Assembly (NCBI GenBank): GCA_963729955.1
Contig: CAVSQA010000008.1
Span: 66,547-130,546, forward strand
Source: an uncultured Gemmatimonadales bacterium
GTDB taxonomy: Bacteria > Gemmatimonadota > Gemmatimonadetes > Gemmatimonadales > JACORV01
Direction: 5' to 3'
Length of the DNA: 64,000 bases
Shown here: positions 3,938 to 61,743 of the stretch, piece after piece
How positions within the stretch are numbered: position 1 is the stretch's first letter
Layout of the letters: each line of letters opens with the position of its first letter
Notes under the pieces: generated by a model
Database searches by the model: none
Told to the model about the DNA's origin: nothing
Seen by the model: the letters and a program-made list of their open reading frames with translations, nothing else
Translations under genes and position numbers: made by a program

Positions 3938-5815
3938 ATGACGCTCGCAGATCTGCCTGTTCTCAACCCGTCCACGCCCGGCCGCGAGGCCCGGCGCGCG
4001 ATACTCGTCGCCATCCTGTTCGCCGTCTTCGGCGCGCTGTACGCCCTGGCGCGAGCCGCCGCCGCCGCGCCGCCCGACCTCTCGGCCTCGACCGGCGACG
4101 TGTTCGGGTTCGCCTACCCGCGCGGTTGGGGACTCGCGGTGGCGCTGTGGTCGGGCGCCGCGCGCTGGCCCTCGAGCCTCGCCAGCGCCGAGACGTTCCT
4201 CGCGGTCAGCGCCACCGTCGTCATGGCGGTCGCCCTGATCGTGGTGATGCACCCCGACCTCCTGGTGCGTCAGGGACCACAGTACGTCTCGCCCGCGCGC
4301 CGCATTACGACCGTGGTCGTGGCCTTCGTGATGGCCTTCCTCATGTACCGCCTGGTGATCGCGGTCGACGGCGTGTTCTCCTTCGACACCCTTGCCACGA
4401 ACCCGGACCGGGCGCGCCGCGTGCTGGTCGGGCTGGGCGCGCTCAGCGCCATCGTGTTCGGCGGCATCTGGTCGTTCATCGGACCCAAGGACTTCGGCCG
4501 GCGCATACCGCTGCGGATTTCGCACGGGGCCCTGGGCGGGATTGCGGTGTGGGGCGCGGTGGCACTGGCGACGCTGCTCTCCAGCCAGGCGCGGAGCTTC
4601 CTCTCCAGCACCCTCGATACCTTCTACACCCTGTTGACGGTGGACGCCGCCAACGGGGCGCCGGGGGCCACGGCGGGCTGGGCCGTGTCGTCGGACGTGC
4701 TCACGGCGGCCACCGCGATGGCGCTGGCGGGCTCGCTGCTCATCGTCACGGCCCCGCAGTCGCTCGGCCCCGGCAACCGCCGCGGCAGCGCCATCGTGTC
4801 CGGCGTGGTGGCGCTGTTCCTGATCGTCGTGGCGGCCACCACCTGGAGCACCACCCAGGCGCGGGCGCGCGAAGTCGACGTGAACGTGGTCAGCGCCCTC
4901 CAGCTCGACCGCACGGCTCCGGCCCGCACGCCCGTGCTGCTCGCGGGTGAGAGTCTCTCGCCCGCGCGGCGCCTCGTCGCCCGGCCGTTGATCGAGCCGA
5001 CGACGACGGCGGACGACTGCATGCACCCTGGCGGCGAGTCGCGGGTGCTGCCCGCGCGCACCGAGAACAACGTCCGCAAGCTCACCGAGTGGCTCCAGAC
5101 ACATCAGGGCGAGGTGAGCGGCATGGCGGTCCGCGTGGCGAGCTGTCGCGCGGCGCTGCAGGCGCTGCTGTGGGAGCCGGACTCGGCCCGCGCGGGCATC
5201 TTCCTCAGCTCGCACCCCGAGCGCATCGGCGCCCTGACGTACCTGTACGCCATGGCGGGCATCAGCACGTCGGCCCCGGCCCTCCTGCGCCGGACGATCG
5301 CGGCGCTGGGCGATACGACGCGCTATCAGCACGGCGTCGAGGCCCCGAAGCGCTTCATGGCGCTCGCCCGGCTGGCCGGCGACTCGGCGGCCGAGGCGGC
5401 CTGGCGCCAGCTCATCGTGACGCCGGCCACCGCGCAGGAGATGGCCTCGCTCCCGGCGCGGCCCGCGTACACCGACGGCGTGGTGAGCGGCCGCATCGCG
5501 ACCACCACGCCCGGTTGGCGGATCGCGCTGCTGATCGCCGACGAGCCGGGTGCCGGCAGCGATCCGACGTCGCAAGCCCCGCGCTCCGAAGGCTCCATCC
5601 TGTCCTCGATGGTGACCGCGACCAACGTCGGACCCGACGGCCGGTTCAGCTTCACCGGCCTCAGGGACGGCTACTACCAGCTCGCGCTGTTGTCGCCGAA
5701 CGGGACCGAGATCCCCCGGTTGACCAAGCTGGTGGTGAAGAACGATCCGGGCGTCTTCCAGCTCGCGGCGACCAGGAAGGTCAAGGATGTGGGGACGGTG
5801 ACGTTGACGTACTGA
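3938..5815 (+). CDS. Hypothetical polytopic membrane protein with a C-terminal CarboxypepD_reg-like beta-sandwich
   Basis: Single 625-aa ORF. The first ~330 aa contain many hydrophobic helices. The C-terminus GPDGRFSFTGLRDGYYQLALLSPNG resembles a carboxypeptidase-regulatory-like domain. No catalytic motif recognised. Confidence 0.6.
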   Translation: MTLADLPVLNPSTPGREARRAILVAILFAVFGALYALARAAAAAPPDLSASTGDVFGFAYPRGWGLAVALWSGAARWPSSLASAETFLAVSATVVMAVALIVVMHPDLLVRQGPQYVSPARRITTVVVAFVMAFLMYRLVIAVDGVFSFDTLATNPDRARRVLVGLGALSAIVFGGIWSFIGPKDFGRRIPLRISHGALGGIAVWGAVALATLLSSQARSFLSSTLDTFYTLLTVDAANGAPGATAGWAVSSDVLTAATAMALAGSLLIVTAPQSLGPGNRRGSAIVSGVVALFLIVVAATTWSTTQARAREVDVNVVSALQLDRTAPARTPVLLAGESLSPARRLVARPLIEPTTTADDCMHPGGESRVLPARTENNVRKLTEWLQTHQGEVSGMAVRVASCRAALQALLWEPDSARAGIFLSSHPERIGALTYLYAMAGISTSAPALLRRTIAALGDTTRYQHGVEAPKRFMALARLAGDSAAEAAWRQLIVTPATAQEMASLPARPAYTDGVVSGRIATTTPGWRIALLIADEPGAGSDPTSQAPRSEGSILSSMVTATNVGPDGRFSFTGLRDGYYQLALLSPNGTEIPRLTKLVVKNDPGVFQLAATRKVKDVGTVTLTY

Positions 5816-5818
5816 GGA

Positions 5819-5940
5819 CGTGAGAGGTGAGAAGCAAGGGGTGAGAAGCGGAACGTGAGACGTGAGAGGTCAAGGTGAGAGGTGAGGGGCGACCCCTCAC
5901 CTCTCACTTCGTCTGCTCACCTCTCACCCGCCCCTCTCAC
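5819..5940. repeat. Heptamer-array palindrome, GTGAG family, copy 1
   Basis: Seven GTGAG units on the left arm (5820, 5827, 5841, 5855, 5862, 5875, 5882) and five CTCAC units on the right arm (5896, 5903, 5916, 5923, 5936). Perfect 15-bp core stem GTGAGAGGTGAGGGG (5875-5889), loop CGA, CCCCTCACCTCTCAC (5893-5907). Confidence 0.9.
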
Positions 5941-40468: not shown

Positions 40469-42869
40469 ATGCGCCTGCGTCTTCCCGTCGTCCTGCTCTG
40501 CGCCGCCGTCCTCGCCGCCGCCGGTTTCGCCGCCCACGCCCGCCTCCGCCCCGGGCGCCAGGCCGACGGCTCCACGCTCCTGGCCGACGGCTGGCGCATC
40601 ACCCCGGCAGGCCGCGCCGTGGCCGTCGGCACGCTGCCGCTCGCGCTGGCGATCCATCCGGACGGACGGGTTCTCACGCTCCTCAGCGGCTACTCGACCA
40701 ACGGCCTGGTGGTGGTGGACCCGGCGCGCTGGGCGGTGAGCGACTCGGTGCCACTGAGCGCCGCCTGGATGGGCCTCGCGGTGCGGCACGACGGCGCCGT
40801 CTTCGCGTCGGGCGGCACCACCGACCGCGTGTGGCGGCTGGTGGAGACCGAGGGGCGGTGGGCGCGCGCCGACAGCGTCGTGCTGGCCGACTCCGGCGCG
40901 TCGGTGTTCCTCTCGGGGCTCTCGCTCGCGCCGGACGGCGGCCGCCTCGCGGTGGTGGGCGACCTGTGCGACTCCGTCTACCTGCTCTCCGCGTCGCCGC
41001 TGCGGCGCACGGCCGCGGCCGCGACCGGCAGCCATCCCTACACTGCGCTGTTCTCGCGCGACGGGCGCACCCTCTACGTCTCGAACTGGGGCGACAGCAC
41101 CGTCAGCGTCTACGGCGTGACGGGCGGCGCGCTGACGCCGCGCGGCGCGCTGGTGGTGCCGCCGCGGCCCTCGGCGCTCGCGCTCTCGCGCGACGGTCGC
41201 ACGCTGTTCATCGCGCACGCCGCCGCGGACGTCGTGTCGCTGGTGGACCTGCGGGACGGACGGGTGGCGCACACCGTGGCGCTGGGACTCACGGCGCGCG
41301 CGCCGCACGGCTCGGGGCCGAACGCCCTCGCGCTCGCGCCCGACGGCCGGACGCTGTACGTGGCCAACGCCGACAACAACGACGTGGCGGTCGTCCGAGC
41401 TCGGCGGTGACGACGGGCCGCGGGTCGCCGGGCTGATCCCGACCGCCTGGTACCCGACGGCCGTGGCGCTGTCGCGCGACGGGCGCACGCTGTACGTCGC
41501 CAACGGCAAGGGTACCGGCTCCGGCCCCAACCCGCTGGGACCGACCGCCCCGGGCTCGCTGCACAGCCAGTACATCGCGGCGCTCCTGGTAGGGCAGCCT
41601 GTCGCCGGATCCCGGTGCCGGATCCGCCCACGCTGCGCCGCTGGACGCGACAGGTGCTCGCCAACTCGCCCTACCGCGACGCGCTCCTCACGCGGGTCCC
41701 GTGGCCGTCGAGCTCGCCGATCCCGGACTCCGTCGGCAAGCCCTCACCCATCCGTCACGTGGTCTACGTCATCCGCGAGAACCGCACCTACGACCAGGTC
41801 TTCGGCGACGACGGCCGCGGCGACGGCGACTCGCGCCTCGCGATCTTCGGCGACTCGGTGACGCCCAACGCGCACGCGCTGGCGCGGCAGTTCGTGCTGT
41901 TCGACAACTTCTACGTGAACGGTGACGTGAGCGCCGACGGCCACTTGTGGGCGGACGCCGGCTACGCCGGCGACTACGTGGAGAAGACCTGGCCCGCCAA
42001 GTACAGCAACCGTCGCGACTGGGACTTCTGGGCCGGGCTCCCGGCCCTCGACCCGCTGGCAGGCTACATCTGGGACGCGGCGCGCCGCGCAGGCGTGACG
42101 GTGCGCAACTACGGCGAGATGACGCAGTGGGACAGCGCGGCGAAGGTCGCGCACACGGACGACAAGGGCCTCGCCGCGATCACCGACCGGCACTTCACCG
42201 GCTGGGACCTGGACGTCACGGACAGCGCGCGCGTGGACGAGTTCCTGCGCGAGCTGGGCGAGGCCGAGCGCGGCGGCACGCTGCCCCAGCTGATGATCCT
42301 GGATCTCCCGCAACGACCACACGTACGGCCGGCAGGCGGGGCGTCCCACGCCGCGCGCCATGGTCGCGGAGAACGACCGCGCGCTGGGGCGGCATGATCG
42401 AGGCGCTCTCGCACTCGCGGTTCTGGAAGGAGACGGCGGTCTTCGTGCTGGAGGACGACGCCCAGAACGGCCCCGATCACGTGGACGCGCACCGCTCACC
42501 GCTCCTCGTCATGAGCCCGTACGTCCGGCGCGGCATGGTGGACAGCACCTTCTACACGACCGCGTCGGTGCTGCGGACCATCGAGCTGATCCTCGGTCTC
42601 CCGCCGCTGAGCCAGTACGATGCCGCCGCCACGCCGCTGTTCCCCGCCTTCACGATGCGAGCCGGACACGGCGCCGTTCGCGGCGCTGCCCTCGCGCTGG
42701 CCGCTGGGCGAGACCAACCCGTGGAGGCGGCACTCCAGCCTGGACCCGCGGGTGTTCCTGCGCGCCCGACTTGGCGGACGAGAACGTGCTGAACCGCGAG
42801 ATCTGGGCGTCGGTGAAGACGACGCCGATGCCGGCGCCGAGGCACTCGGTCGATGCTGGTGAGAGGTGA
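40469..42869 (+). pseudogene. Fusion of a YncE/lactonase-type beta-propeller and a phosphoesterase (PLC/acid-phosphatase family) domain, secreted; frame-disrupted as sequenced
   Basis: Signal peptide MRLRLPVVLLCAAVLAAAGFA. Repeated ...DGRTLYV(A/S)N... propeller blades in ORF 40469..41410 and 41463..41861. Phosphoesterase part (HVVYVIRENRTYDQVFGD...FVLEDDAQNGPDHVDAHRSP) in 41615..42397 and 41947..42792. Stop TGA at 42867-42869. Confidence 0.7.
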
Positions 42870-43011
42870 GAGGTGAGACGTGAGAAGGACAGGTGAGGGG
42901 TGAGAGGGCGAAAGGCGTGAGAGGGCGCGAGGCCGATGTCGCGACGCGCCCTCTCACTTCATCTTCTCACCTCTCACCTCTCCATCTCACGTCTCACCCC
43001 TCACCTCTCAC
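42859..43011. repeat. Heptamer-array palindrome, GTGAG family, copy 2 (most symmetric copy)
   Basis: Seven GTGAG units (42859, 42866, 42873, 42880, 42893, 42900, 42917) and seven CTCAC units (42953, 42966, 42973, 42986, 42993, 43000, 43007). Core stem GTGAGAGGGCGCG (42917-42929) pairs with CGCGCCCTCTCAC (42945-42957). Confidence 0.9.
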
Positions 43012-43014
43012 GCT

Positions 43015-44011
<997 letters not shown>

Positions 44012-44099: not shown

Positions 44100-44668
44100 A
44101 TGGACGCCCACGACGCCATCGCCCGACGGACCTCGACCCGGTCCTTCACGGCGGACCGCGTTCCCGCGCCCGCTCATCGAGCGGATCCTCGCCGCCGCCG
44201 TGCGAGCCCCCAACCACAAGCTCACCGAGCCGTGGCGGTTCGCGGTCCTGACCGGCGCCAGCGCCCGGCGGTTCGCCGAGCTCAAGCGCGAGCACCGGGC
44301 CACGCGATTCCCCGATCCGACCGCTCCCGAGGCGGTCCGAGGCCATCGACAAGACGTACCGGGAGGCCCGCGACACCCCGGCCTTCATCATCGTGATGTG
44401 CGCGACCTCCGACGACCCGGTGCGCCAGGAGGAGGACTTCGCGGCGACGATGATGGCGACGGAGAACCTGCTGATCGCGGCCACCGCCGAGGGCCTCGGG
44501 ACCTACGTCCGCACCGGCGGCATCATGCGGGACGCGGCGGTCCGCGAGCTGGCCCAGGCCCCGTCCAGCCACCGCATCGTCGCGGTCGTCTCGCTCGGCC
44601 ACCCCGGCGAGCCGCCGCAGGCCACGCGGCGAGCCGACCCCGCCGCGAAGACGGTCTGGCTGGATTAG
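44100..44668 (+). pseudogene. Nitroreductase-family protein; frame-disrupted as sequenced
   Basis: MDAHDAIARRTSTRSFTADRV (frame of ORF 43779..44396), then LIERILAAAVRAPNHKLTEPWRF (44092..44730), then ...ATENLLIAATAEGLGTYVRTGG...VSLGHPGE (44393..44668). Confidence 0.7.
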
Positions 44669-47823: not shown

Positions 47824-50800
47824 ATGCCGCGCGCTCGCCTGCTCCTCCTCGTCGTCGGCCTCCTGCTGGCGGTCGCCCCGTCCCGGGCCGTGGCGCAGGC
47901 GGGCGTGGGCACCGACATCATCACCGGCACGATCCTCGGCGAGGACGGCAGTCCGGTGCAGGACGCGAACGTCGAGGCCTACTCCCTCGAGACGCAGGTC
48001 ACGCGCCGCACCCATTCGGACGCCCGCGGCCGCTTCACCATTCTCTTTCCGGACGGCGGCGGCCAGTACCGGATGAGCGTGCGCGTCCTGGGGATGAACC
48101 CCCGCACCGCGCTGCTGACCCGCGACGCGGACGAGGACCGGCTGGTGTGGGACGTCCAGCTCCAGTCGAGCGCGATCACTCTCGACGCCGTCAACGTCAA
48201 CGGCGGGCCGCGGCTGCGCGGCGGCGAGGCCCCCACGCCGGGCTCGACCGAGCGCGTCCTCACCCCGGATCAGCTCGCGCGGCTGCCGGTCGATCCGACG
48301 GACCTCGCCTCGCTGGTCTCCCTGGTGCCGGGCATCCTGCCCCTCGCCGGCACGGATTCGACGGCGTCGGCGTTCTCGGTGGCCGGCCTGGGCCCCGACG
48401 CCAACGCGGTGACGCTCGACGGCCTGCTGTTCGGCAACACGACGGTGCCGCAGGAAGCGCTGCGACAGACGCGCGTCGTCACCAACACCTACGACGTGTC
48501 GCGCGGCCAGTTCTCCGGCGGACTGGTGGCGTCCACCACCCGGGGCGGCAGCAACGTGCTGCAGGGGTCGTGGCAGGTGTAGCTCCGGAACCAGAACGTC
48601 GCCGTCGACGCCGGCGACTCGCCCTTCACCGAGGGCTACACGCAGAACCAGCTCAGCGGCGGCCTCGGCGGCCCGATCGTCAAGGACCGAGTGTTCATCT
48701 TCGCCTCCGGCATGGCCCGGCTGCGCTCCGATCCGCAGCAGACGCTGTTCTCGGCCAGCCCGGTGGACTTCACCCGGCTCGGGGTTTCGCCCGACTCGGT
48801 GGCGCGGTTCCTCCACCTGGCGGACTCGTTGGGGGTGCCGCTCTACAGCGTGCCGGGATCGGACACGCGCGCCAGCAACAACCTGTCCGGCCTGGTGCGG
48901 TTCGACTGGGTGCTGAGCAACTCGCACACCCTCACCCTGCGCGGCAACTGGAACGGCACCAGCCAGAACCCGTCGCGCCTCGGCCCGCTCTCCCTGCCCC
49001 AGACCGGCGGCGACGTGAAGAACTCGGGGGGCGGCCTGATGGCGACGGTGACGTCGCACTTCGGCGCCACGGTCCTGAACGAGCTGCGGGGCTTCTACCA
49101 GGGCGCGACCAACCGCGGCGATCCCTTCAGCCTGGTACCGCAGGCCCGGGTCCAGGTGGCGTCCGTCCTGCCCGACACCACGCTCGGGATCACGACGCTG
49201 TCGTTCGGCGGCAACGCCGGGCTCCCCGTGAGCACGGTGTCCTCGGGCTTCGAGGCGTCCAACGAGCTGTCGTGGCTGCCAGGGGCCGGGAGCCACCGCT
49301 TCAAGGTCGGCGCCGACTGGCTCACCGAGCGCACCGACAACCTGATCGGCGGGGACCAGTACGGCACCTTCCTCTACAACTCGCTGGGCGCGCTGGCGAC
49401 CGACTCGGCGGCCAGCTACCGCCGCACGCTCGGCATCATCGAGCGGCGCTCCTACGACCAGCAGTGGGGACGTCTACGCGGGCGACGTGTGGATGGTCAC
49501 CCGGCCGTTCCAGCTGACCTACGGCCTGCGCCTGGAGGGCTCGTCGTTCGGCGACCCGCCGGCCTACAACCCCGCCGTGGACTCGATCTACGGGTTGCGC
49601 ACCGACCACCTGCCCACCGAGACGCACCTCAGTCCCCGCGCCGGGTTCACCTGGACCTTCGGCAGCGCGCCGGCCGGCGAGTTCCGCGCCTTCCAGCCCG
49701 CCACCTGGGTCGTACGCGGCGGCGTGGGCGAGTTCCGTAACCAGGCGCCGACCAACCTCGTGGCCCAGGCGCGCGCCGCCACCGGCCTCGGGCAGACCAC
49801 CGCCCAGGTATCGTGCTTTGGCCCCGGCGTGCCGACGCCCGACTGGAGCCAGTACTTCGCGAACCCGGACTCGATTCCCGGGACGTGCCTGGCCGGCGGC
49901 GGGCCGTTGCCGGCCGGCTCGGCGGCCCCGACGGTGGCCGTCCTCGCTCCCGGCTTCGAGACGCCGCGAGCCTGGCGAGGCTCCCTCAGCGTCGAACGGC
50001 GGCTGACGCAGCTGCTCCGCCTCACCGTGGAGGCCAGCTTCGCCCGCGGCGTGGCGCAGACCGGCCTCGCGGACCTCAATCTCGCCGCGACGCCGCGTTT
50101 CACCCTGGCCTCGGAGGGCAACCGTCCCGTCTACGTGCCGGCCTCGGCCATCACGCCCGGCACCGGCGTGGCGAGCTTCGCCGCGTCGCGCGTGGACTCG
50201 GCGTTCGCCAGCGTGATGGAGGCGCAGTCCAACCTGCACACCAGCTCGGCGCAGCTCACCACGACCTTGGGCGGCGTGTTCGGCCCCGGGATCGTCTTCT
50301 CGGCGTCGTACACGCTGGCAGCGGGCGCGCGACCAGCAGACCGGCATCCGCGGCTCGACCGGCGGCGACCCCAACGTGGCCGAGTGGGCACGCAGCGACT
50401 TCGAGCGCGAGCACAGCTTCGTGCTGACGGTCACCTACCCGTTCTCCACCGCGCTCGAGATCACCTCGGTCGGCCGGCTCACGTCGGGAGCCCCGTTCAC
50501 GCCGCTGGTGGGCGGCGACGTGAACGGCGACGGTCTCAGGAACGACCGGGCGTTCATCTTCGCCCCGGGCGCCGGCACCCCCGAGGCGCAGGCCATGGCG
50601 CGCCTGCTGGCCTCGGCGTCCCCGTCCATTCGCGGGTGCCTGGAGCGGCAGATCGGCAGCATCGCGGCGCGGAACTCCTGTCTGGGGCCGTGGCAGGGCG
50701 CGCTCGACTTTCAGCTCAACTGGCGGCCCGCGTTCTGGGGCCTCAACCACCGGCTGCAGGTCTCGGTGGTCACGTTCAACTTCCTGCGGGGCCTCGACGA

Positions 50801-51521
50801 GCTGCTGCACGGCGTGAACGGCGCGGAGGGGTGGGGACTCCAGACCCGTCCGGACGGCACGCTGCTGTACGTGACGGGCTTCAACCCGGCGACCAACGCC
50901 TATGCCTACCAGGTCAACGACCGCTTCGGCGCGACCTACGGCTCCGCCACCGCCTACCGCCCGCCGTTCCAGATCGGCATCCAGGCGCGCCTGACCATCG
51001 GACCCGACCGCGTGCGGCAGGCGCTGGACGCGATGCGGGCCGGCGGCGCCATGCGCGGCGGCTTCGCGGGCTTCGGCGGCGCCGGCGGCGCGTTCGGCGG
51101 ATTGGGTGGCTTCCGGCCTCAGCTGTCGATCGAGACCCTGGTGTCACGCATCGATTCGGCGCTGCCCAACCCCGCCGGCGCGGCGCTCCAGCTCCGCGAC
51201 TCGCTCAAGCTCGACTCGGGCCAGGTGGTGCTGCTCGTGCCGCTCCGCGACTCGCTCGCCGCGCGCAACGCGGTGCGGGTGGACTCGCTGCGGCACGCGT
51301 TCCAGAGGATCGGCGACACGCCCTCACCCTCGCAGCTCATCGGGCTGATGCCGCAGCTGCGCCCGCTGTTCCAGGCCGCGCGCGACGACGTGGCCAGGAA
51401 CATCATCGACGTGCGCGCCATCCTCCGCGACGATCAGTGGGCGGCGATGCCCGCGGCGGTGAAGAACTTCCAGTCGAACCTGTTCCGCGGCCTTCGCCGC
51501 GGGCCACCCAGACCGGAGTAA
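47824..51521 (+). pseudogene. Giant outer-membrane protein with a CarboxypepD_reg-like domain plus TonB-dependent-receptor-like barrel (Oar-like); frame-disrupted as sequenced
   Basis: Signal peptide MPRARLLLLVVGLLLAVAPSRAVAQ. GTILGEDGSPVQDANVEAY...DARGRFTILFPDGGGQYRMSV. Plug-like LARLPVDPTDLASLVSLVPG. It continues through ORFs 48691..49740, 49487..51577 and 50376..51521. Confidence 0.7.
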
Positions 51522-51660
51522 GCCGACCGGAACGTCCGGCGGCGGGACGCTTCCCGGACGGGACGCGGATGCGCTAGCTTCCCGCACCCCTCCGGAGGGC
51601 GACCTGACCGCGCGACCGGCCGACTACCGGCCCTGGATCGACCACACCGAGTACCTCGCC

Positions 51661-53296
51661 GTGCCGGAAGCCGGACCGGACGAGCGCATCGACGTGGGCG
51701 TGCTGTTCGTCGGGGCGGGACCCGCGGGTCTCGCCGGCGCGATCCGCCTGGCCCAGCTGCTCGAGACCGCGCCCGACGTGAAGGAGCGCCTGGGCGACGT
51801 GCCCATCGCCGTCGTCGAGAAAGGCAAGTACCCCGGGGCGCACCTGGTCTCGGGCGCCGTGGTCAACCCGATCGCCTTCCGATCCCTGTTCCCCGACCTG
51901 CCCGACGCAGGAGCGGCCGTTCCGCGGCCCGGTACCGGGCGAGGCGCTGTACCTGCTCACCGAGCGCCGCGCCCTGCGCGCGCCCGTCATGCCGCCCACG
52001 ATGCGCAATCACGGCAACCACGTCGCGTCCATCAGCGAGATCGCCCGGTGGCTGGCCGGAAAGGCCGAAGCCGCGGGGGTCACGATCCTGACCGAGACGT
52101 CGGCGGTAAAGGCGCTGGTGGCCGATGGCGCGGTGCGCGGCGTGCTGACCGGCGACAAGGGCCGAGGCCGCGACGGCACGCCGGAGGCCAATTTCGAGCC
52201 GGGCGCCGAGATCGTGGCCCGGGCCACGGTGATCGCCGAGGGCTCGAACGGCCATCTGGCCACCGCGCTGGCCCACCACTTCGGCCTCGCCGGCCCGAAC
52301 CCCCAGGTGTACGCCCTGGGCGTGAAAGAGGTGTGGGACGTGCCGCGCCCGCTGGACCGGGTGATCCACACGATGGGCTGGCCGCTCCGCTGGGGAAAGG
52401 CGGCCGCGGAGTTCGGCGGGAGCTTCATCTATCCCATGGGCGAGGGGCAGGTCTCGATCGGCCTCGTCGTCGGTCTCGACTACGCCGACGCGTCACTGTC
52501 GGTGCACGACCTGCTGCAGCAGCTCAAGCTGCATCCCCTGGTGCGGCCCATCCTGGAGGGCGGCACCCGCGCGGGCTGGGGAGCGAAGACCATCCCGGAG
52601 GGCGGGTTCTACGCGCTGCCCTCGCAGCTGAGCGTGCGCGGCGCCGTGCTCACGGGCGATGCCGCCGGCCTGGTCAACGTGCCGGCACTCAAGGGCATCC
52701 ACTACGCGATGTGGTCGGGAATCCTGGCGGCGGAGACGATCTTCGGCTGTCTCAAGGCGGGCCGCGATCCCATCGCGCTCGGCGCCCTCTCGGGCTACGA
52801 CCAGGCCGTGCGGCAGAGCTTCATCGGGCGCGACCTGTACCGCGTGCGCAACATGCGCCAGGCGTTCGGCGGCGGCCTCGTGCCGGGCGCCGCGCTGGCC
52901 GGCCTCATGACCCTGACGCGCGGCGCGTTCCCCGGCGGGCGGTTCGGCAGCGAGCCCGACGCCGCGCGGGCCGTCGCGCTCGGCCACCGCGCCTATCCCA
53001 GGTCCGACGGGCAACGCACCTTCGACAAGCTCTCGAGCGTGTATGCCAGCGGGAACCGCACCCGCGACACGCAGCCCAACCACCTGCTGGTCAAGACCGA
53101 GGTGCCGGAAGCCGTCGCCGCGGCCTGGATCAACATGTGCCCCGCGGGCGTCTACGAGTGGACCACCGACGAGCGCGGCGCGCGCACGCTGCGCATCAAC
53201 GCGCCCAACTGCGTGCAGTGCGGCGCGATCAGCGCCAAGGGGGGAAGGCTCACGCCGCCGGAAGGGGGGAGCGGGCCTGAATACACTGTGACGTGA
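51661..53296 (+). pseudogene. Electron-transfer flavoprotein:ubiquinone oxidoreductase; one frame change as sequenced
   Basis: FAD fold VGVLFVGAGPAGLAGAIRLAQL in ORF 51661..53280. The rest is in 51989..53296, including the C-terminal FeS region CPAGVYEW...NAPNCVQCGAISAKG. The frames switch near 51905-51915. Confidence 0.85.
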
Positions 53297-53376
53297 GGGG
53301 ATTAGGGGCTAGGGACTAGGGGTCAGGGGTTAGGGCCCCGCCCCACACTAACCCCTAGCCCCTAGCCCCTAACCCC
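53293..53376. repeat. Heptamer-array palindrome, telomere-like YTAGGGG / CCCCTAR family
   Basis: The left arm reads GTGAGGGG ATTAGGGG CTAGGGA CTAGGGG TCAGGGG TTAGGG, the loop is CCCCGCCCCACA, and the right arm reads CTAACCCC TAGCCCC TAGCCCC TAACCCC. Core GGGGTTAG (53326-53333) pairs with CTAACCCC (53348-53355). Confidence 0.9.
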
Positions 53377-53401
53377 TGGGTGTGGGGTGTCAGGTGTAGG
53401 G

Positions 53402-53875
53402 TTACGCCCGGGCGGCGATCAGGGTCGCCAGCTTCTCGAGGAAGGCCGTATCGTCCGGCGTGAATGCCGCCGGCACGTCGGAATCGATGTCGATCTCGCC
53501 CAGCACCGTCGTGCCCCGCACGATCGGCACCACGATCTCGCTTCTCGTCTCGAGGCTGCAGGCCAGGTAGGCCGGATCCGCGTTCACGTCGTCCACCACC
53601 ACCGTCCGCTTCTCCCGCGCCGCGCGCCCGCAGATCCCCTGGCCCACCGGGATGCGAACGTGGTCGGTCGGCCGCCCGCGGAACGCCCGCAGCCGGAGCG
53701 CGTCGCCCTCCTCCATCCAATAGATGTAGACGCCGGTATAGTGAGGCATGCCGGCCTCAAGGGCCGCCACCAGCCGATCGAGCACGGCCTCGAGCGGCGC
53801 GCGGTCCCCGGCCGCCACCAGCGCGAGGATCTCGCGCTCCGTGGCGGCCCGACCGGAAGGCGTGGCGGTGGTCAT
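53402..53875 (-). CDS. Single-domain GAF protein (free methionine-(R)-sulfoxide reductase-like)
   Basis: 157-aa ORF. VGQGICGRAAREKRTVVVDDVNADPAYLACSLETRSEIVVPI is typical of stand-alone GAF/fRMsr-type proteins. Confidence 0.7.
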   Translation of the reverse strand: MTTATPSGRAATEREILALVAAGDRAPLEAVLDRLVAALEAGMPHYTGVYIYWMEEGDALRLRAFRGRPTDHVRIPVGQGICGRAAREKRTVVVDDVNADPAYLACSLETRSEIVVPIVRGTTVLGEIDIDSDVPAAFTPDDTAFLEKLATLIAARA

Positions 53876-53921
53876 CCAGAAAAGATAGTCGCCGCGCCCT
53901 CCGGTCGCCCGGCACCCCCGT

Positions 53922-55049: not shown

Positions 55050-55078
55050 AGTATATCTGTTGCAACGACTATTGTCAA
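55050..55078 (-). promoter_or_regulatory. Near-consensus sigma-70 promoter for marR-yceI (predicted leaderless mRNA) with an overlapping inverted repeat
   Basis: The minus strand reads TTGACA (55078-55073), a 17-nt spacer, then TATACT (55055-55050), then 8 nt to ATG 55041. The inverted repeat ACAG-N5-CTGT (55049-55061) overlaps the -10 and is a candidate MarR operator. Confidence 0.5.
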
Positions 55079-55121
55079 GAGCGACAGCTGCCAGGCGGCA
55101 GACCTGACCGCCGTCCCCCCC

Positions 55122-55150
55122 TTGCCATATGAACATTGCCATATTACTAT
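55122..55150 (+). promoter_or_regulatory. Sigma-70-like promoter for arsR-DUF302-trxA-osmC (predicted leaderless mRNA)
   Basis: TTGCCA (55122-55127), a 17-nt spacer, then TACTAT (55145-55150), then 6 nt to ATG 55157. A direct repeat TTGCCATAT occurs at 55122 and 55136. This is the most AT-rich patch of the window. Confidence 0.45.
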
Positions 55151-55156
55151 GTTCTC

Positions 55157-55495
55157 ATGATGACTACCCTGCGTCAGGCACCGCTCGACCCGCGTGTCCT
55201 GGCCGAAGCCGCGGAGATGGTGCGCGTCCTCGGCCACCCGGTGAGGCTCCGGATCGTCGAGCTGCTCGAGCCTGGCGAGCAGACGGTGACCCAGCTGCAG
55301 GAGAGTCTGGACGCGCCGCAGGCGCTGGTTTCGCAGCAACTGGCGCGGATGCGGGCGGCGGGCATCGTCGAGGGGCGGCGCAGCGGCTCCAACGTCTGGT
55401 ACGCCATCGCCGACGAGCGGGTCGTCCGGATGCTCGACTGTCTGCGCCACTGCGACACCGAGGCTGGGCGCGGCCCCCGCCGACAGGGGGAATGA
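55157..55495 (+). CDS. ArsR/SmtB-family transcriptional regulator
   Basis: ORF 55136..55495. HTH LGHPVRLRIVELLEPGEQTVTQLQESLDAPQALVSQQLARMRAAGIV. The preferred start is ATGATG at 55157. Confidence 0.85.
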   Translation: MMTTLRQAPLDPRVLAEAAEMVRVLGHPVRLRIVELLEPGEQTVTQLQESLDAPQALVSQQLARMRAAGIVEGRRSGSNVWYAIADERVVRMLDCLRHCDTEAGRGPRRQGE

Positions 55496-55572
55496 TGACC
55501 GCACCGGAGAGGCGAGTGGAGGACTGATGACGGCACCGGACAAGCAGAGCGGGGGATTGATGACGGCACCGG
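55486..55572 (+). repeat. Three direct copies of a 22-nt RBS-plus-start motif GGRGGAnTGATGACsGCACCGG (period 32-33 nt)
   Basis: Copies at 55486-55507, 55518-55539 and 55551-55572. Each TGATG joins a stop to a start. The arsR stop meets a 10-codon mini-ORF (MTAPERRVED). The mini-ORF stop meets the DUF302 ORF, whose product begins [20 protein letters not shown]. Confidence 0.85.
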
Positions 55573-56972: not shown

Positions 56973-60565
<3,593 letters not shown>

Positions 60566-60573
<8 letters not shown>

Positions 60574-61564
60574 CCTGTCGACCAGCTATCTGGGGCTCAC
60601 CCTGTCGAGCCCCCTGGTGGCCTCGGCCTCGCCCTTGAGCGAGGACCTCGGGAACCTGCGGCGGATGGAGGATGCCGGCGCCGCCGCCGTGGTGCTCCAT
60701 TCCCTGTTCGAGGAGCAGATCGAGCGCGAGAGCCAGGCCCTCGACCGCTCGCTCTCGGCGGGGACCGAGACCTACGCGGAATCGCTCACCTACTTCCCGG
60801 ACCTCAAGCACTACAACCTCGGGCCGGAGGGGTACCTCGAGCACGTGCGCAGGGCCAAGGCGGCGCTCGGCATTCCCGTGATCGGAAGCCTCAACGGCAT
60901 CTCGAGTGGCGGGTGGGTGGACTACGCGCGGGGCATCGAGCAGGCGGGCGCCGACGCGCTGGAGCTCAACGTCTACTTCATCCCGACCGAACCCCACCTG
61001 ACCGGCGCCGCGGTCGAGCAGCAATACTGCGACCTGGTGCGCGACGTGAAGGCCGCCGTCGGGATTCCCCTCGCCGTCAAGGTGGGACACCAGTTCTCGG
61101 CGTTCGCGAACATGGCGCGGCGGCTCGAGGAGGCCGGCGCCGACGCGCTGGTCCTGTTCAACCGCTTCTACCAGCCGGACCTGGACGTCGAGAACCTCGA
61201 GGTGCTGAGCGCCCTGTCGCTCAGCCAGCCCTACGAGCTGCTGCTCCGGCTGCACTGGATCGCGGTGCTGTACGGCCGGATCGAGGCGGACCTCGCCGTG
61301 ACGGGCGGCGTGCACGAGGCGCGCGACGTGCTCAAGGCGATGATGGCTGGTGCCAACGTGGCGATGATGGCCTCGGCATTGCTCAAGCGGGGCATTCCGC
61401 ACCTGGCGACCGTGCGCCGGGACCTGGAGGCGTGGATGGCGGAGCGCGAGTACGAATCCATCCGCCAGATGCGCGGCAGCCTGAGCCAGCGGTCCGCAGC
61501 CAACCCCGAGGCGTTCGAGCGGGCGAATTACGTGAAGGTGCTGTCGAGCTACGCGATGAAATAG
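60566..61564 (+). CDS. Dihydroorotate-dehydrogenase-like TIM-barrel flavoprotein (function unknown), intact
   Basis: 332-aa ORF. ATG 60566 overlaps the PFOR stop by 8 nt (ATGACTGA). Class-1 DHOD-like layout ([10 protein letters not shown]...IGSLNG...ADALELNVY...AVKVG...VTGGV). Confidence 0.75.
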
Positions 61565-61743
61565 GTGAGACGTGAGGGGTGAGAGGTGAGAGGACGACGT
61601 GAGAGGTGAGAAGGGAAAGCGAAAGGTGAGAAGAAAGGCGTGAGAGGCCGGCCCCGTCCTCTCACGCCTTTTGACCTCTCACCTCGCACCTCACCCTCTC
61701 ACGTCTCACCTTACCCTCTCACCCCTCACGACTCACCTCTCAC
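61565..61743. repeat. Heptamer-array palindrome, GTGAG family, copy 3 (longest)
   Basis: Eight GTGAG units (61565, 61572, 61579, 61586, 61599, 61606, 61626, 61640). Nine CTCAC units (61661, 61678, 61690, 61698, 61705, 61718, 61725, 61732, 61739) plus one degenerate CTCGCAC. Confidence 0.9.
61634..61671. terminator. Core hairpin of the palindrome with flanking T/A runs (bidirectional intrinsic-terminator-like)
   Basis: AAAGGCGTGAGAGG (61634-61647), a 10-nt loop, then CCTCTCACGCCTTT (61658-61671): a perfect 14-bp stem. It is followed by TTTTG on the + strand and by CTTTCTTC on the - strand. Confidence 0.55.

Follow-up and report, generated by a model that had tools for sequence, protein, structure and literature searches.

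The spacer between the convergent ETF-QO and GAF-domain genes of a Gemmatimonadales metagenome-assembled genome harbors two short arrays of the heptamer YTAGGGG, which are inverted with respect to each other and fill an unconstrained stretch between the two stop codons. The element lies in a 64,000-nt stretch of DNA (the window, to which all coordinates refer unless a contig is named) and belongs to a known, poorly understood class, that of the heptamer repeats and inverted heptamer pairs adjacent to stop codons, for which the phylum and the unit are new. The explanation that we favour, with about even confidence, is that of a simple-repeat hairpin built by slippage that has a role at 3' ends, and its resemblance to telomeres is coincidental.

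Concerning the anatomy of the element, the ETF-QO stop codon TGA (53294-53296, + strand) lies inside GTGAGGGG, with the first G-tract directly 3' of it; the Pfam matches ETFQO_UQ-bd and Fer4_ETF_QO are in frame, the tblastn alignment with the ETF-QO ortholog of the related contig L122 ends at 53293, and the gene end GTGACGTGA is kept in relatives. The G-rich arm (53297-53335, + strand), GGGGATTA GGGGCTA GGGACTA GGGGTCA GGGGTTA GGG, is composed of five to six heptamers with consensus YTAGGGG, shows six tracts of three to four G and keeps a period of 7 save for one 8-nt unit. It is followed by a 12-nt loop (53336-53347), CCCCGCCCCACA, whose two C-tracts are able to pair with the innermost G unit, and by the C-rich arm (53348-53377, + strand), CTAACCC CTAGCCC CTAGCCC CTAACCCCT, with four CCCCTAR units that are the complement of the left arm, that is, a G-rich array on the minus strand, which is the sense strand of the GAF gene. 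Tandem Repeats Finder (TRF) describes the C-rich arm as period 7 with 4.3 copies and 91% matches. The inverted repeat measures 29-30 nt with 87-90% complementarity (90% for the arms 53298-53326 and 53348-53376, with 21 nt between them), and the linker order TTA-CTA-CTA-TYA is mirrored between the two arms. A tail (53378-53401, + strand), GGGTGTGGGGTGTCAGGTGTAGGG, a decayed GGGTGTR array (GGGTGTG GGGTGTC AGGTGTA GGG), runs up to the GAF stop codon TAA (53402-53404, minus strand), the GAF gene (53402-53875, minus) being assigned through Pfam GAF and through tblastn with the L122 GAF protein.

The palindrome of G-rich heptamers, C-rich loop and CCCCTAR units is thus present as it had been described from the sequence alone (hereafter the sequence-only reading), with five to six G units and four C units, and the rotation of stop codons through the frames also stands, as TAG, TAA and TGA occur in all three frames of both strands across the element. 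The claim of vertebrate-type telomere hexamers does not: the period is 7, there are only two TTAGGG and one CCCTAA, none of them in tandem, and the locus is internal to a syntenic chromosomal region. TTAGGG appears because the unit is YTAGGGG. As a word, YTAGGGG is not enriched in the window (6 matches vs 4.9 expected), five of the six being in this locus, and no second YTAGGGG palindrome is present in the 64 kb.

The array is not a chance product, since period-7 arrays with a score of at least 12 number three in the window vs 0.07 per shuffle. Folded as RNA, the element reaches -70.8 kcal/mol on the + strand (z -2.8) and -77.5 kcal/mol on the - strand (z -5.7), and folded as DNA -34.9 kcal/mol (z -3.2), a stem of about 30 bp being predicted on either strand. 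Scans of 52800-53900 for intrinsic terminators and for the sigma-70 consensus gave no match, and the terminator scan found no U-tract 3' of the stem on either strand (flanks TGGGTGTGGGG on + and CCCCTCACGTC on -). Rfam at gathering score has no match in the whole window; an E-value scan of 53150-53550 yields over the element only sub-threshold matches to generic hairpins (miRNA precursors), and two other cis-regulatory models match far below their thresholds.

G-quadruplex (G4) potential had been proposed for both strands, and it is indeed found there: canonical motifs (G3+ N1-7)x4 lie at 53297-53322 (+) and 53352-53376 (-), and the G4 prediction suggested at that time makes the element the strongest stretch of the 64 kb, with G4Hunter scores of +2.0 to +2.16 and -2.0 to -2.29 (2.03 for the left arm, -2.1 for the right). 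The window as a whole has far fewer canonical G4 motifs than its 1-kb block shuffles (6 on both strands vs 43 +/- 5.7), and the two arms account for two of the six. The proposed competition between hairpin and G4 holds only in part. ViennaRNA with G-quadruplex energies predicts a four-layer G4 for either arm by itself (-21.5 kcal/mol for the left arm and -32.4 for the other) and also a G4, at -10.7 to -36.2 kcal/mol and free of a competing arm, for the direct GGGTGTA, GGGTTGT and GGGGTCA arrays that relatives carry; for the complete element a hairpin is predicted (-63 and -71 kcal/mol), whose advantage over G4 in the presence of both arms is about 40 kcal/mol. Hence, in this model G4 folding of the element would be possible only transiently, since transcription from either side reaches a G arm first, or where the complementary arm is missing.

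The most informative evidence comes from the same junction in relatives. A scan of metagenome contigs provided 80 further loci, and 47 non-redundant regions downstream of the ETF-QO stop were compared (individual regions are cited by L numbers). Arrays with a score of at least 12 are present in 16 of the 47 (period 7 in nine, period 8 in four and period 9 in three), and weaker ones in about eight more, starting 0-12 nt from the ETF-QO stop; none of 159 coding control segments contains an array of that score. Low-G+C, more distant homologues show no arrays. Units and copy numbers differ at the junction across L121-L126 and L128-L187, and the orthologous spacers present about ten further unit types, some as direct arrays and some as palindromes.

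Direct arrays characterize the closest relatives, with (GGGTGTA)x6 in L121/L128 (87% nucleotide identity in the flanking gene), GGGTGTA/GGGTGTG x5 in L122 and (GGGTTGT)x5 in L123. A direct GGGGTCA array is found in L164 and L166, with 4.5 vs 6.5 copies at 92% flank identity; there (1801-1860) it fills the spacer, and the TCA of its last unit is apparently the stop of the convergent gene (TGA on the other strand). Palindromes are built of GGGGTTT/CCCCAAA in L139, which is (TTTGGGG)-like, of GGGGTCC/GGGATCC in L130, of GGGTGTA/CCCTACA in L136, with a CCCCTAG unit inside the right arm, of CCCGACA...GGGTGTC in L135, L137, L140 and L146, where the C-rich arm comes first, and of GGTGATGA/TCATCACC, of period 8, in L125, L131 and L134. 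Degenerate GTGATGA arrays (L126, L144, L145), a GACAGAA array (L185) and a one-unit hairpin, CAGGGTGTgaCACCCTG (L124, L129, L133), complete the series. The one-unit hairpin of L124/L133 and the expanded same-unit palindrome of L136 occupy the identical site with the same flanks. The (TTTGGGG)-like palindrome of L139 at this very junction implies that the telomere resemblance is a by-product of heptamers that combine a G-tract with a T/A linker.

Turnover is fast: pairs 3-8% apart in the flanking gene have the array in common, and between relatives about 10% apart the unit may be wholly replaced (L123 vs L131, L130 vs L137/L140). Read in the sense orientation of ETF-QO, all eight types of direct unit that follow the gene are rich in G or in purines. 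The divergence of aligned spacer columns is about one-third to three-quarters of that at third codon positions, and the outer stem CGGGGAGGTGA...TCACCTCCCCG is retained among L125, L131 and L134 at 37-40% third-position divergence, which suggests constraint or homogenisation. Compared as sequences, the regions show that period and position persist at the junction, and that unit sequence and G4 capacity do not. As for the G-rich tail up to the GAF stop, the sequence-only reading was right about its presence; it is a remnant of the GGGTGTA array of the closest relatives, and therefore the YTAGGGG palindrome is a lineage-specific addition. It should be noted that the ETF-QO/GAF spacer reaches about 680 nt in L127 (11693-12374) and also in L142, L143, L147, L151 and L184, with blocks conserved between contigs such as CCATCCCCTGGAAGGCACCTTCCG; no gene is called in this insert, Rfam does not match it, and it offers no convincing open reading frame (ORF).

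The window contains, besides its one YTAGGGG locus, three palindromes of an unrelated unit, GTGAGAG, so that the recurrence of the architecture with different units, already pointed out from the sequence, is borne out both here and by the roughly ten further types of the orthologous spacers. A GTGAGAG array followed by a CTCTCAC array (5820-5940; fold -89 kcal/mol) begins 5 nt past the stop of the + gene 3938-5815 at a tandem junction; a GGTGAGA/TCTCACC palindrome (42858-43019; -129 kcal/mol) lies at the convergent phosphoesterase/FabH junction with both stops inside its arms; and an AGGTGAG/ACCTCTC palindrome (61563-61743; -123 kcal/mol) takes up the whole of the convergent DHO-dehydrogenase/T2SSE spacer between the two stops, with orthologous palindromes in L123, L125 and L127. 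All of them start at a stop codon or at most 5 nt from one, and three of the four palindromic elements of the window are at convergent junctions. Their arms are independent arrays of one unit rather than mirror copies, and the elements cannot be aligned with each other. Mirrored unit order is true of the YTAGGGG locus but, by inspection, fails for them and for L139, and was therefore rejected as a general test of inverted duplication. The purine-rich GTGAGAG units contain GAGGTGA, which we take to be the complement of the 16S rRNA 3' tail (Shine-Dalgarno-like), and the C-rich arms presumably resemble anti-Shine-Dalgarno sequences.

Further arrays are found on related contigs. In the window and seven of these contigs TRF identifies 15 multi-copy arrays of period 7 and three of period 8, periods 4-6 and 10 being absent; the strong arrays on the related contigs are in convergent spacers and in tandem spacers past a stop. 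A different setting is the divergent MarR/HTH_5 spacer (window about 55054-55157; L121 13386-13517; L122 13400-13542; L123 13437-13671; L125 13473-13609), which has two canonical TTGACA-N17-TAnnnT promoters ending 6-7 nt before the start codons, a placement that suggests leaderless mRNAs. In L121, L122, L123 and L125 a palindromic array of G/C-rich heptamers occupies precisely the interval between the two -35 boxes, in DNA that is probably untranscribed. Taken as sequence evidence, this points to a DNA-level process that makes palindromic arrays wherever sequence is free to vary.

Two neighbouring spacers deserve separate mention. The YceI/GAF spacer shows TACACCC...GGGTGTA palindromes with the C-rich arm first in L123 (12185-12310), L124 (12191-12296) and L125 (12255-12353), and none in the window (53876-53921), where a conserved TATCTT about 6 nt upstream of the GAF ATG is possibly the -10 box of a leaderless transcript. 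Between the ArsR/HTH_5 and DUF302 genes, which overlap by 4 nt in the L122 ortholog, the window has a tandem repeat (55486-55572) of 32-33 nt in 2.6-2.7 copies with consensus GGGGGAATGATGACGGCACCGGACAAGCGAGC.

Beyond the Gemmatimonadales relatives, species-representative genomes were scanned for three consecutive CCCCTAR units. (YTAGGGG)n occurs in at least 120 loci of many phyla, with matches in Lysobacterales, cyanobacteria, Pirellulales, Acidobacteriota, Gemmatimonadales, Thiobacillus and others, so that the absence of further copies, which the sequence-only reading had named as the result that would speak against it, was not observed. Among the matches listed, same-unit palindromes are seen in Ramlibacter (L055), a cyanobacterium (L111) and L099, and a long direct array of 11 units in Pseudoxanthomonas; the genome of the window is not among these matches. 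Some metagenome-assembled genomes of uncultured gammaproteobacteria display another arrangement, (YTAGGGG)n followed by TAGTCGGAA, a variable core of 60-150 nt, TTCCGACTA and (CCCCTAR)n, which resembles a miniature inverted-repeat transposable element (MITE) with the arrays as terminal inverted repeats (L020 3120-3280; L021 4330-4540; L031 2570-2740 and 3260-3460; L039 4760-4990; L083 4930-5100).

The idea that such palindromes are unusual in bacteria did not survive comparison with the literature. The G-rich heptamer repeats that Rehm et al. 2015 reported from Xanthomonas (GGGAATC) and from Nostoc (GGGGA(C/T)T) consist of 2-26 tandem 7-nt units with a tract of three to four G, are intergenic, and for the most part overlap a stop codon or are no more than 50 bp away from one, on the coding strand (PMC4692102). 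In Xanthomonas 70-75 inverted pairs per genome stand beside stop codons in convergent orientation, capable of forming stem-loops; at the same gene pair, length and sequence of the repeats differ between related genomes, and the repeats fold as G4 in vitro and are transcribed, with no function or regulatory role found (PMC4692102). The YTAGGGG element shares the following traits with them: at least two tandem heptamers each with a G3-4 tract, an array at the ETF-QO stop whose G-rich strand is the coding strand of that gene, a nearby convergent array of the same unit on the other strand (the right arm, G-rich in the sense orientation of GAF), and variation of unit and copy number among relatives. 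It differs in its phylum, Gemmatimonadota, in its unit, and in the many unrelated units found within one clade, some of them without G-tracts. For Gemmatimonadota, a literature search yielded no account of repeats of this kind.

Other known repeats are more distant. Cyanobacterial short tandemly repeated repetitive (STRR) heptamers and long simple sequence repeats (SSR) of 5-11-nt units were described by Mazel 1990 and Mrazek 2007, as quoted in PMC4692102 and PMC4679880; according to the account of Mrazek 2007 in PMC4679880, tandem heptanucleotides are over-represented in the non-coding parts of large genomes, which are often rich in G+C, and polymerase slippage was proposed for the 7-nt preference. 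As far as these two articles relate, heptamer arrays adjoining stop codons were noted in 1990, 2007 and 2015 and have no accepted function (PMC4692102, PMC4679880). STRR and long SSR are likewise enriched non-coding heptamers, but STRR units are clade-specific and palindromic pairing at 3' ends is not a defining trait. The TAACTGA heptamers of Beggiatoaceae, cyanobacteria and Bacteroidetes are intergenic with stops in all frames, and units of this kind are able only to abut ORFs, not to enter them (MacGregor 2015, PMC4679880). These too are intergenic heptamer arrays with stop codons in all three frames, but they are almost always direct and just upstream of start codons, and a translational role was proposed for them. 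A third comparison concerns the repetitive extragenic palindromic (REP) sequences, with their bacterial interspersed mosaic elements (BIME) and REP doublets forming hairpins (REPIN), of Enterobacteria and Pseudomonas, imperfect extragenic palindromes at 3' ends and convergent junctions that fold in mRNA, shield the RNA upstream of them from 3' exonucleases and can attenuate read-through. REPs are dispersed, near-identical copies of about 35 nt mobilised by REP-associated tyrosine transposases (RAYT), whereas here the array is local, of 7-nt units, single in the window and devoid of conserved non-repeat sequence. Rho-independent terminators, including bidirectional ones, share the G+C-rich stem-loop directly past the stops at a convergent junction, but the present element has no U-tract on either strand and its repeat-built stem of about 30 bp is far longer than is typical of terminators. 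Eukaryotic telomeres (TTAGGG, TTTAGGG, TTGGGG) similarly combine a G-tract with a T/A linker and form G4; the element differs in being chromosome-internal, with about five units of period 7, mixed and palindromic, and with no telomerase context.

The favoured explanation, the slippage-built hairpin with a 3'-end role, may be laid out as follows. The ancestral spacer would have carried a direct GGGTGTA-type array, within which a variant heptamer was amplified by slipped-strand replication; GTAGGGT and CTAGGGG differ at two of seven positions, and L136 has both unit types adjacent. The amplified array would then have been copied into the opposite orientation by template switching (quasi-palindrome correction), a step supported by the linkers, whose order is mirrored from one arm to the other, and the resulting hairpin would be tolerated in a spacer without sequence constraint. 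In the spacers of the clade such arrays would form and be replaced all the time, with a drifting unit and a constant placement and period (7, sometimes 8-9). Both convergent transcripts should contain the whole element and fold as a G+C-rich stem-loop of about 30 bp lacking a U-tract, whose likeliest effect, by analogy with REPs and with other U-less 3'-end hairpins, would be to stop 3'-exonucleases and to act on transcription as a pause site or roadblock, so that less of it runs on into the opposing gene. The back-up stops in every frame would be a side effect. Stop codons in all frames were also considered as a selected function and found unconvincing, the relatives' units GGGTTGT and GGGTGTG having no stop; stops in arrays may be explained by survivorship, because arrays with stops cannot extend into ORFs (PMC4679880).

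Several points weigh against a 3'-end role. The role at the RNA level is one that we infer, the terminator scan of 52800-53900 found no U-tract, and the three closest relatives L121, L122 and L123 have a direct array only and no hairpin. In L148 and L129 the spacer is only 20-32 nt and has no array. A long hairpin is hence not required at the junction, given that the closest relatives are direct-only and some regions have no array. The palindromes of the MarR/HTH_5 promoters, present in DNA that is probably untranscribed, indicate that palindromes form at the DNA level regardless of RNA function, and the lower rate of the spacers is weak evidence for constraint, because repeat alignments understate divergence. 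U-less hairpins, moreover, terminate poorly with purified mycobacterial RNA polymerase. The proposal of the sequence-only reading that the architecture itself is selected is unproven, and a mutational origin accounts for much of the pattern.

This leads to the main competitor, possible though clearly less probable in our judgement, which is that the arrays are non-adaptive filler, produced by lineage-specific heptamer slippage and template switching where sequence is unconstrained, with no selected function and only incidental effects on transcripts. It would account for the fast replacement of units, for presence and absence differing among close relatives, the closest of which have direct arrays only, for spacers filled exactly up to stop codons and for the minimal array-free spacers of some relatives, as well as for the arrays between the -35 boxes of divergent promoters; that Rehm et al. 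found no regulatory role (PMC4692102) and that stop-containing units survive only outside ORFs (PMC4679880) fits equally well. What it leaves poorly explained is that all eight direct unit types are G-rich on the ETF-QO sense strand, that spacer substitution is below the third-position rate with outer stems kept at 37-40% third-position divergence, and that nearly all arrays of the window and most of those in relatives come with an inverted partner made of the same unit. The depletion of canonical G4 motifs elsewhere in the window also speaks against mere filler, since it would mean that G-tract arrays are tolerated only at these sites.

At the opposite end, the heptamer arrays might be a selected, clade-wide marking of gene boundaries in Gemmatimonadales that ends transcripts or insulates genes without needing a U-tract and has counterparts in Xanthomonas and cyanobacteria; we regard this as rather unlikely. 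Under such a scheme repeat-built stems could re-pair in many registers and regrow after damage, and the strand rule, by which G or purines prevail on the coding strand past the stop, would hint at sensing of the 7-nt periodicity, instead of any sequence, by RNA polymerase, the ribosome or a protein.

Also unlikely is an element selected for its G3-4 tracts, in which a DNA or RNA G4 or i-motif competes with the hairpin and regulates termination or stability. The top G4Hunter score of the window, the two arms among six canonical motifs in G4-depleted DNA, the four-layer G4 predicted for either arm, the relatives' direct arrays with no competing arm, the transcription of the G arm first in both directions and the in vitro folding of related heptamers (PMC4692102) are all consistent with it, but they have to be set against a hairpin or duplex about 40 kcal/mol more stable with both arms, and no G4-dependent function was found in Xanthomonas (PMC4692102). 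Furthermore, palindromes of the same architecture are made of GTGAGAG, GGTGATGA and GACAGAA, arrays without G-tracts, and G4 is for this reason not the common denominator of the class.

A mobile element of MITE or REP/REPIN type, in which a transposase or RAYT-type enzyme would have inserted the palindrome after the ETF-QO stop and in front of the older GGGTGTR array, is quite improbable. The palindrome is present only in the lineage of the window, beside that older array, the gammaproteobacterial loci with (YTAGGGG)n plus TAGTCGGAA as inverted ends around 60-150-nt cores do look MITE-like, and REPs are also located at 3' ends. However, the window has a single YTAGGGG locus, its 12-nt loop contains no core, neither a target-site duplication nor conserved non-repeat ends are visible, the GTGAGAG palindromes have independent arms and do not align as copies of a single element, and unit families follow orthologous loci rather than genomes.

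The assembly has to be considered as well. Gene order ETF-QO> <GAF <YceI <MarR is kept in seven independent assemblies, the best homologues of the ETF-QO are from named Gemmatimonadales, and the identical 435-aa product (P0001) is recorded on a 381,693-bp contig. About eight frame changes relative to orthologs or L122 proteins occur in 19 kb of coding sequence, namely one in the nitroreductase (44164-44665), two in the CarboxypepD_reg/outer-membrane protein (47878-51515), one in ETF-QO (51604-53293, near 51893-51906) and at least four in pyruvate:ferredoxin oxidoreductase (56973-60567), a pattern better explained by errors in an assembly that was probably made from long reads than by pseudogenes. 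Since the assembly is indel-rich, G-run lengths (GGG vs GGGG) are unreliable to the base; the existence of the element is not in doubt, and its single-base details are. An assembly error at a contig join, or the relic or end of a linear replicon, for which these frame changes and the TTAGGG hexamers might be invoked, is hardly credible given the period of 7 with its few, non-adjacent hexamers, the collinear flanks in seven independent assemblies, the internal site, the record of P0001 on the long contig and the analogous arrays in the same spacer of dozens of short-read metagenome contigs. The telomere, contig-join and mobile-element readings were thus rejected on the period of 7, the collinear flanks and the lack of a core or target-site duplication at the locus.

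For annotation, the consequence is that a G-rich palindrome at the end of a bacterial gene, even one that looks like a telomere, is an ordinary member of the heptamer class. For the biology of the group, dozens of Gemmatimonadales assemblies present one conserved junction in several states, i.e. no array, a one-unit hairpin, direct arrays and palindromes of about ten different units, and the series amounts to a natural experiment on the birth and replacement of heptamer elements.

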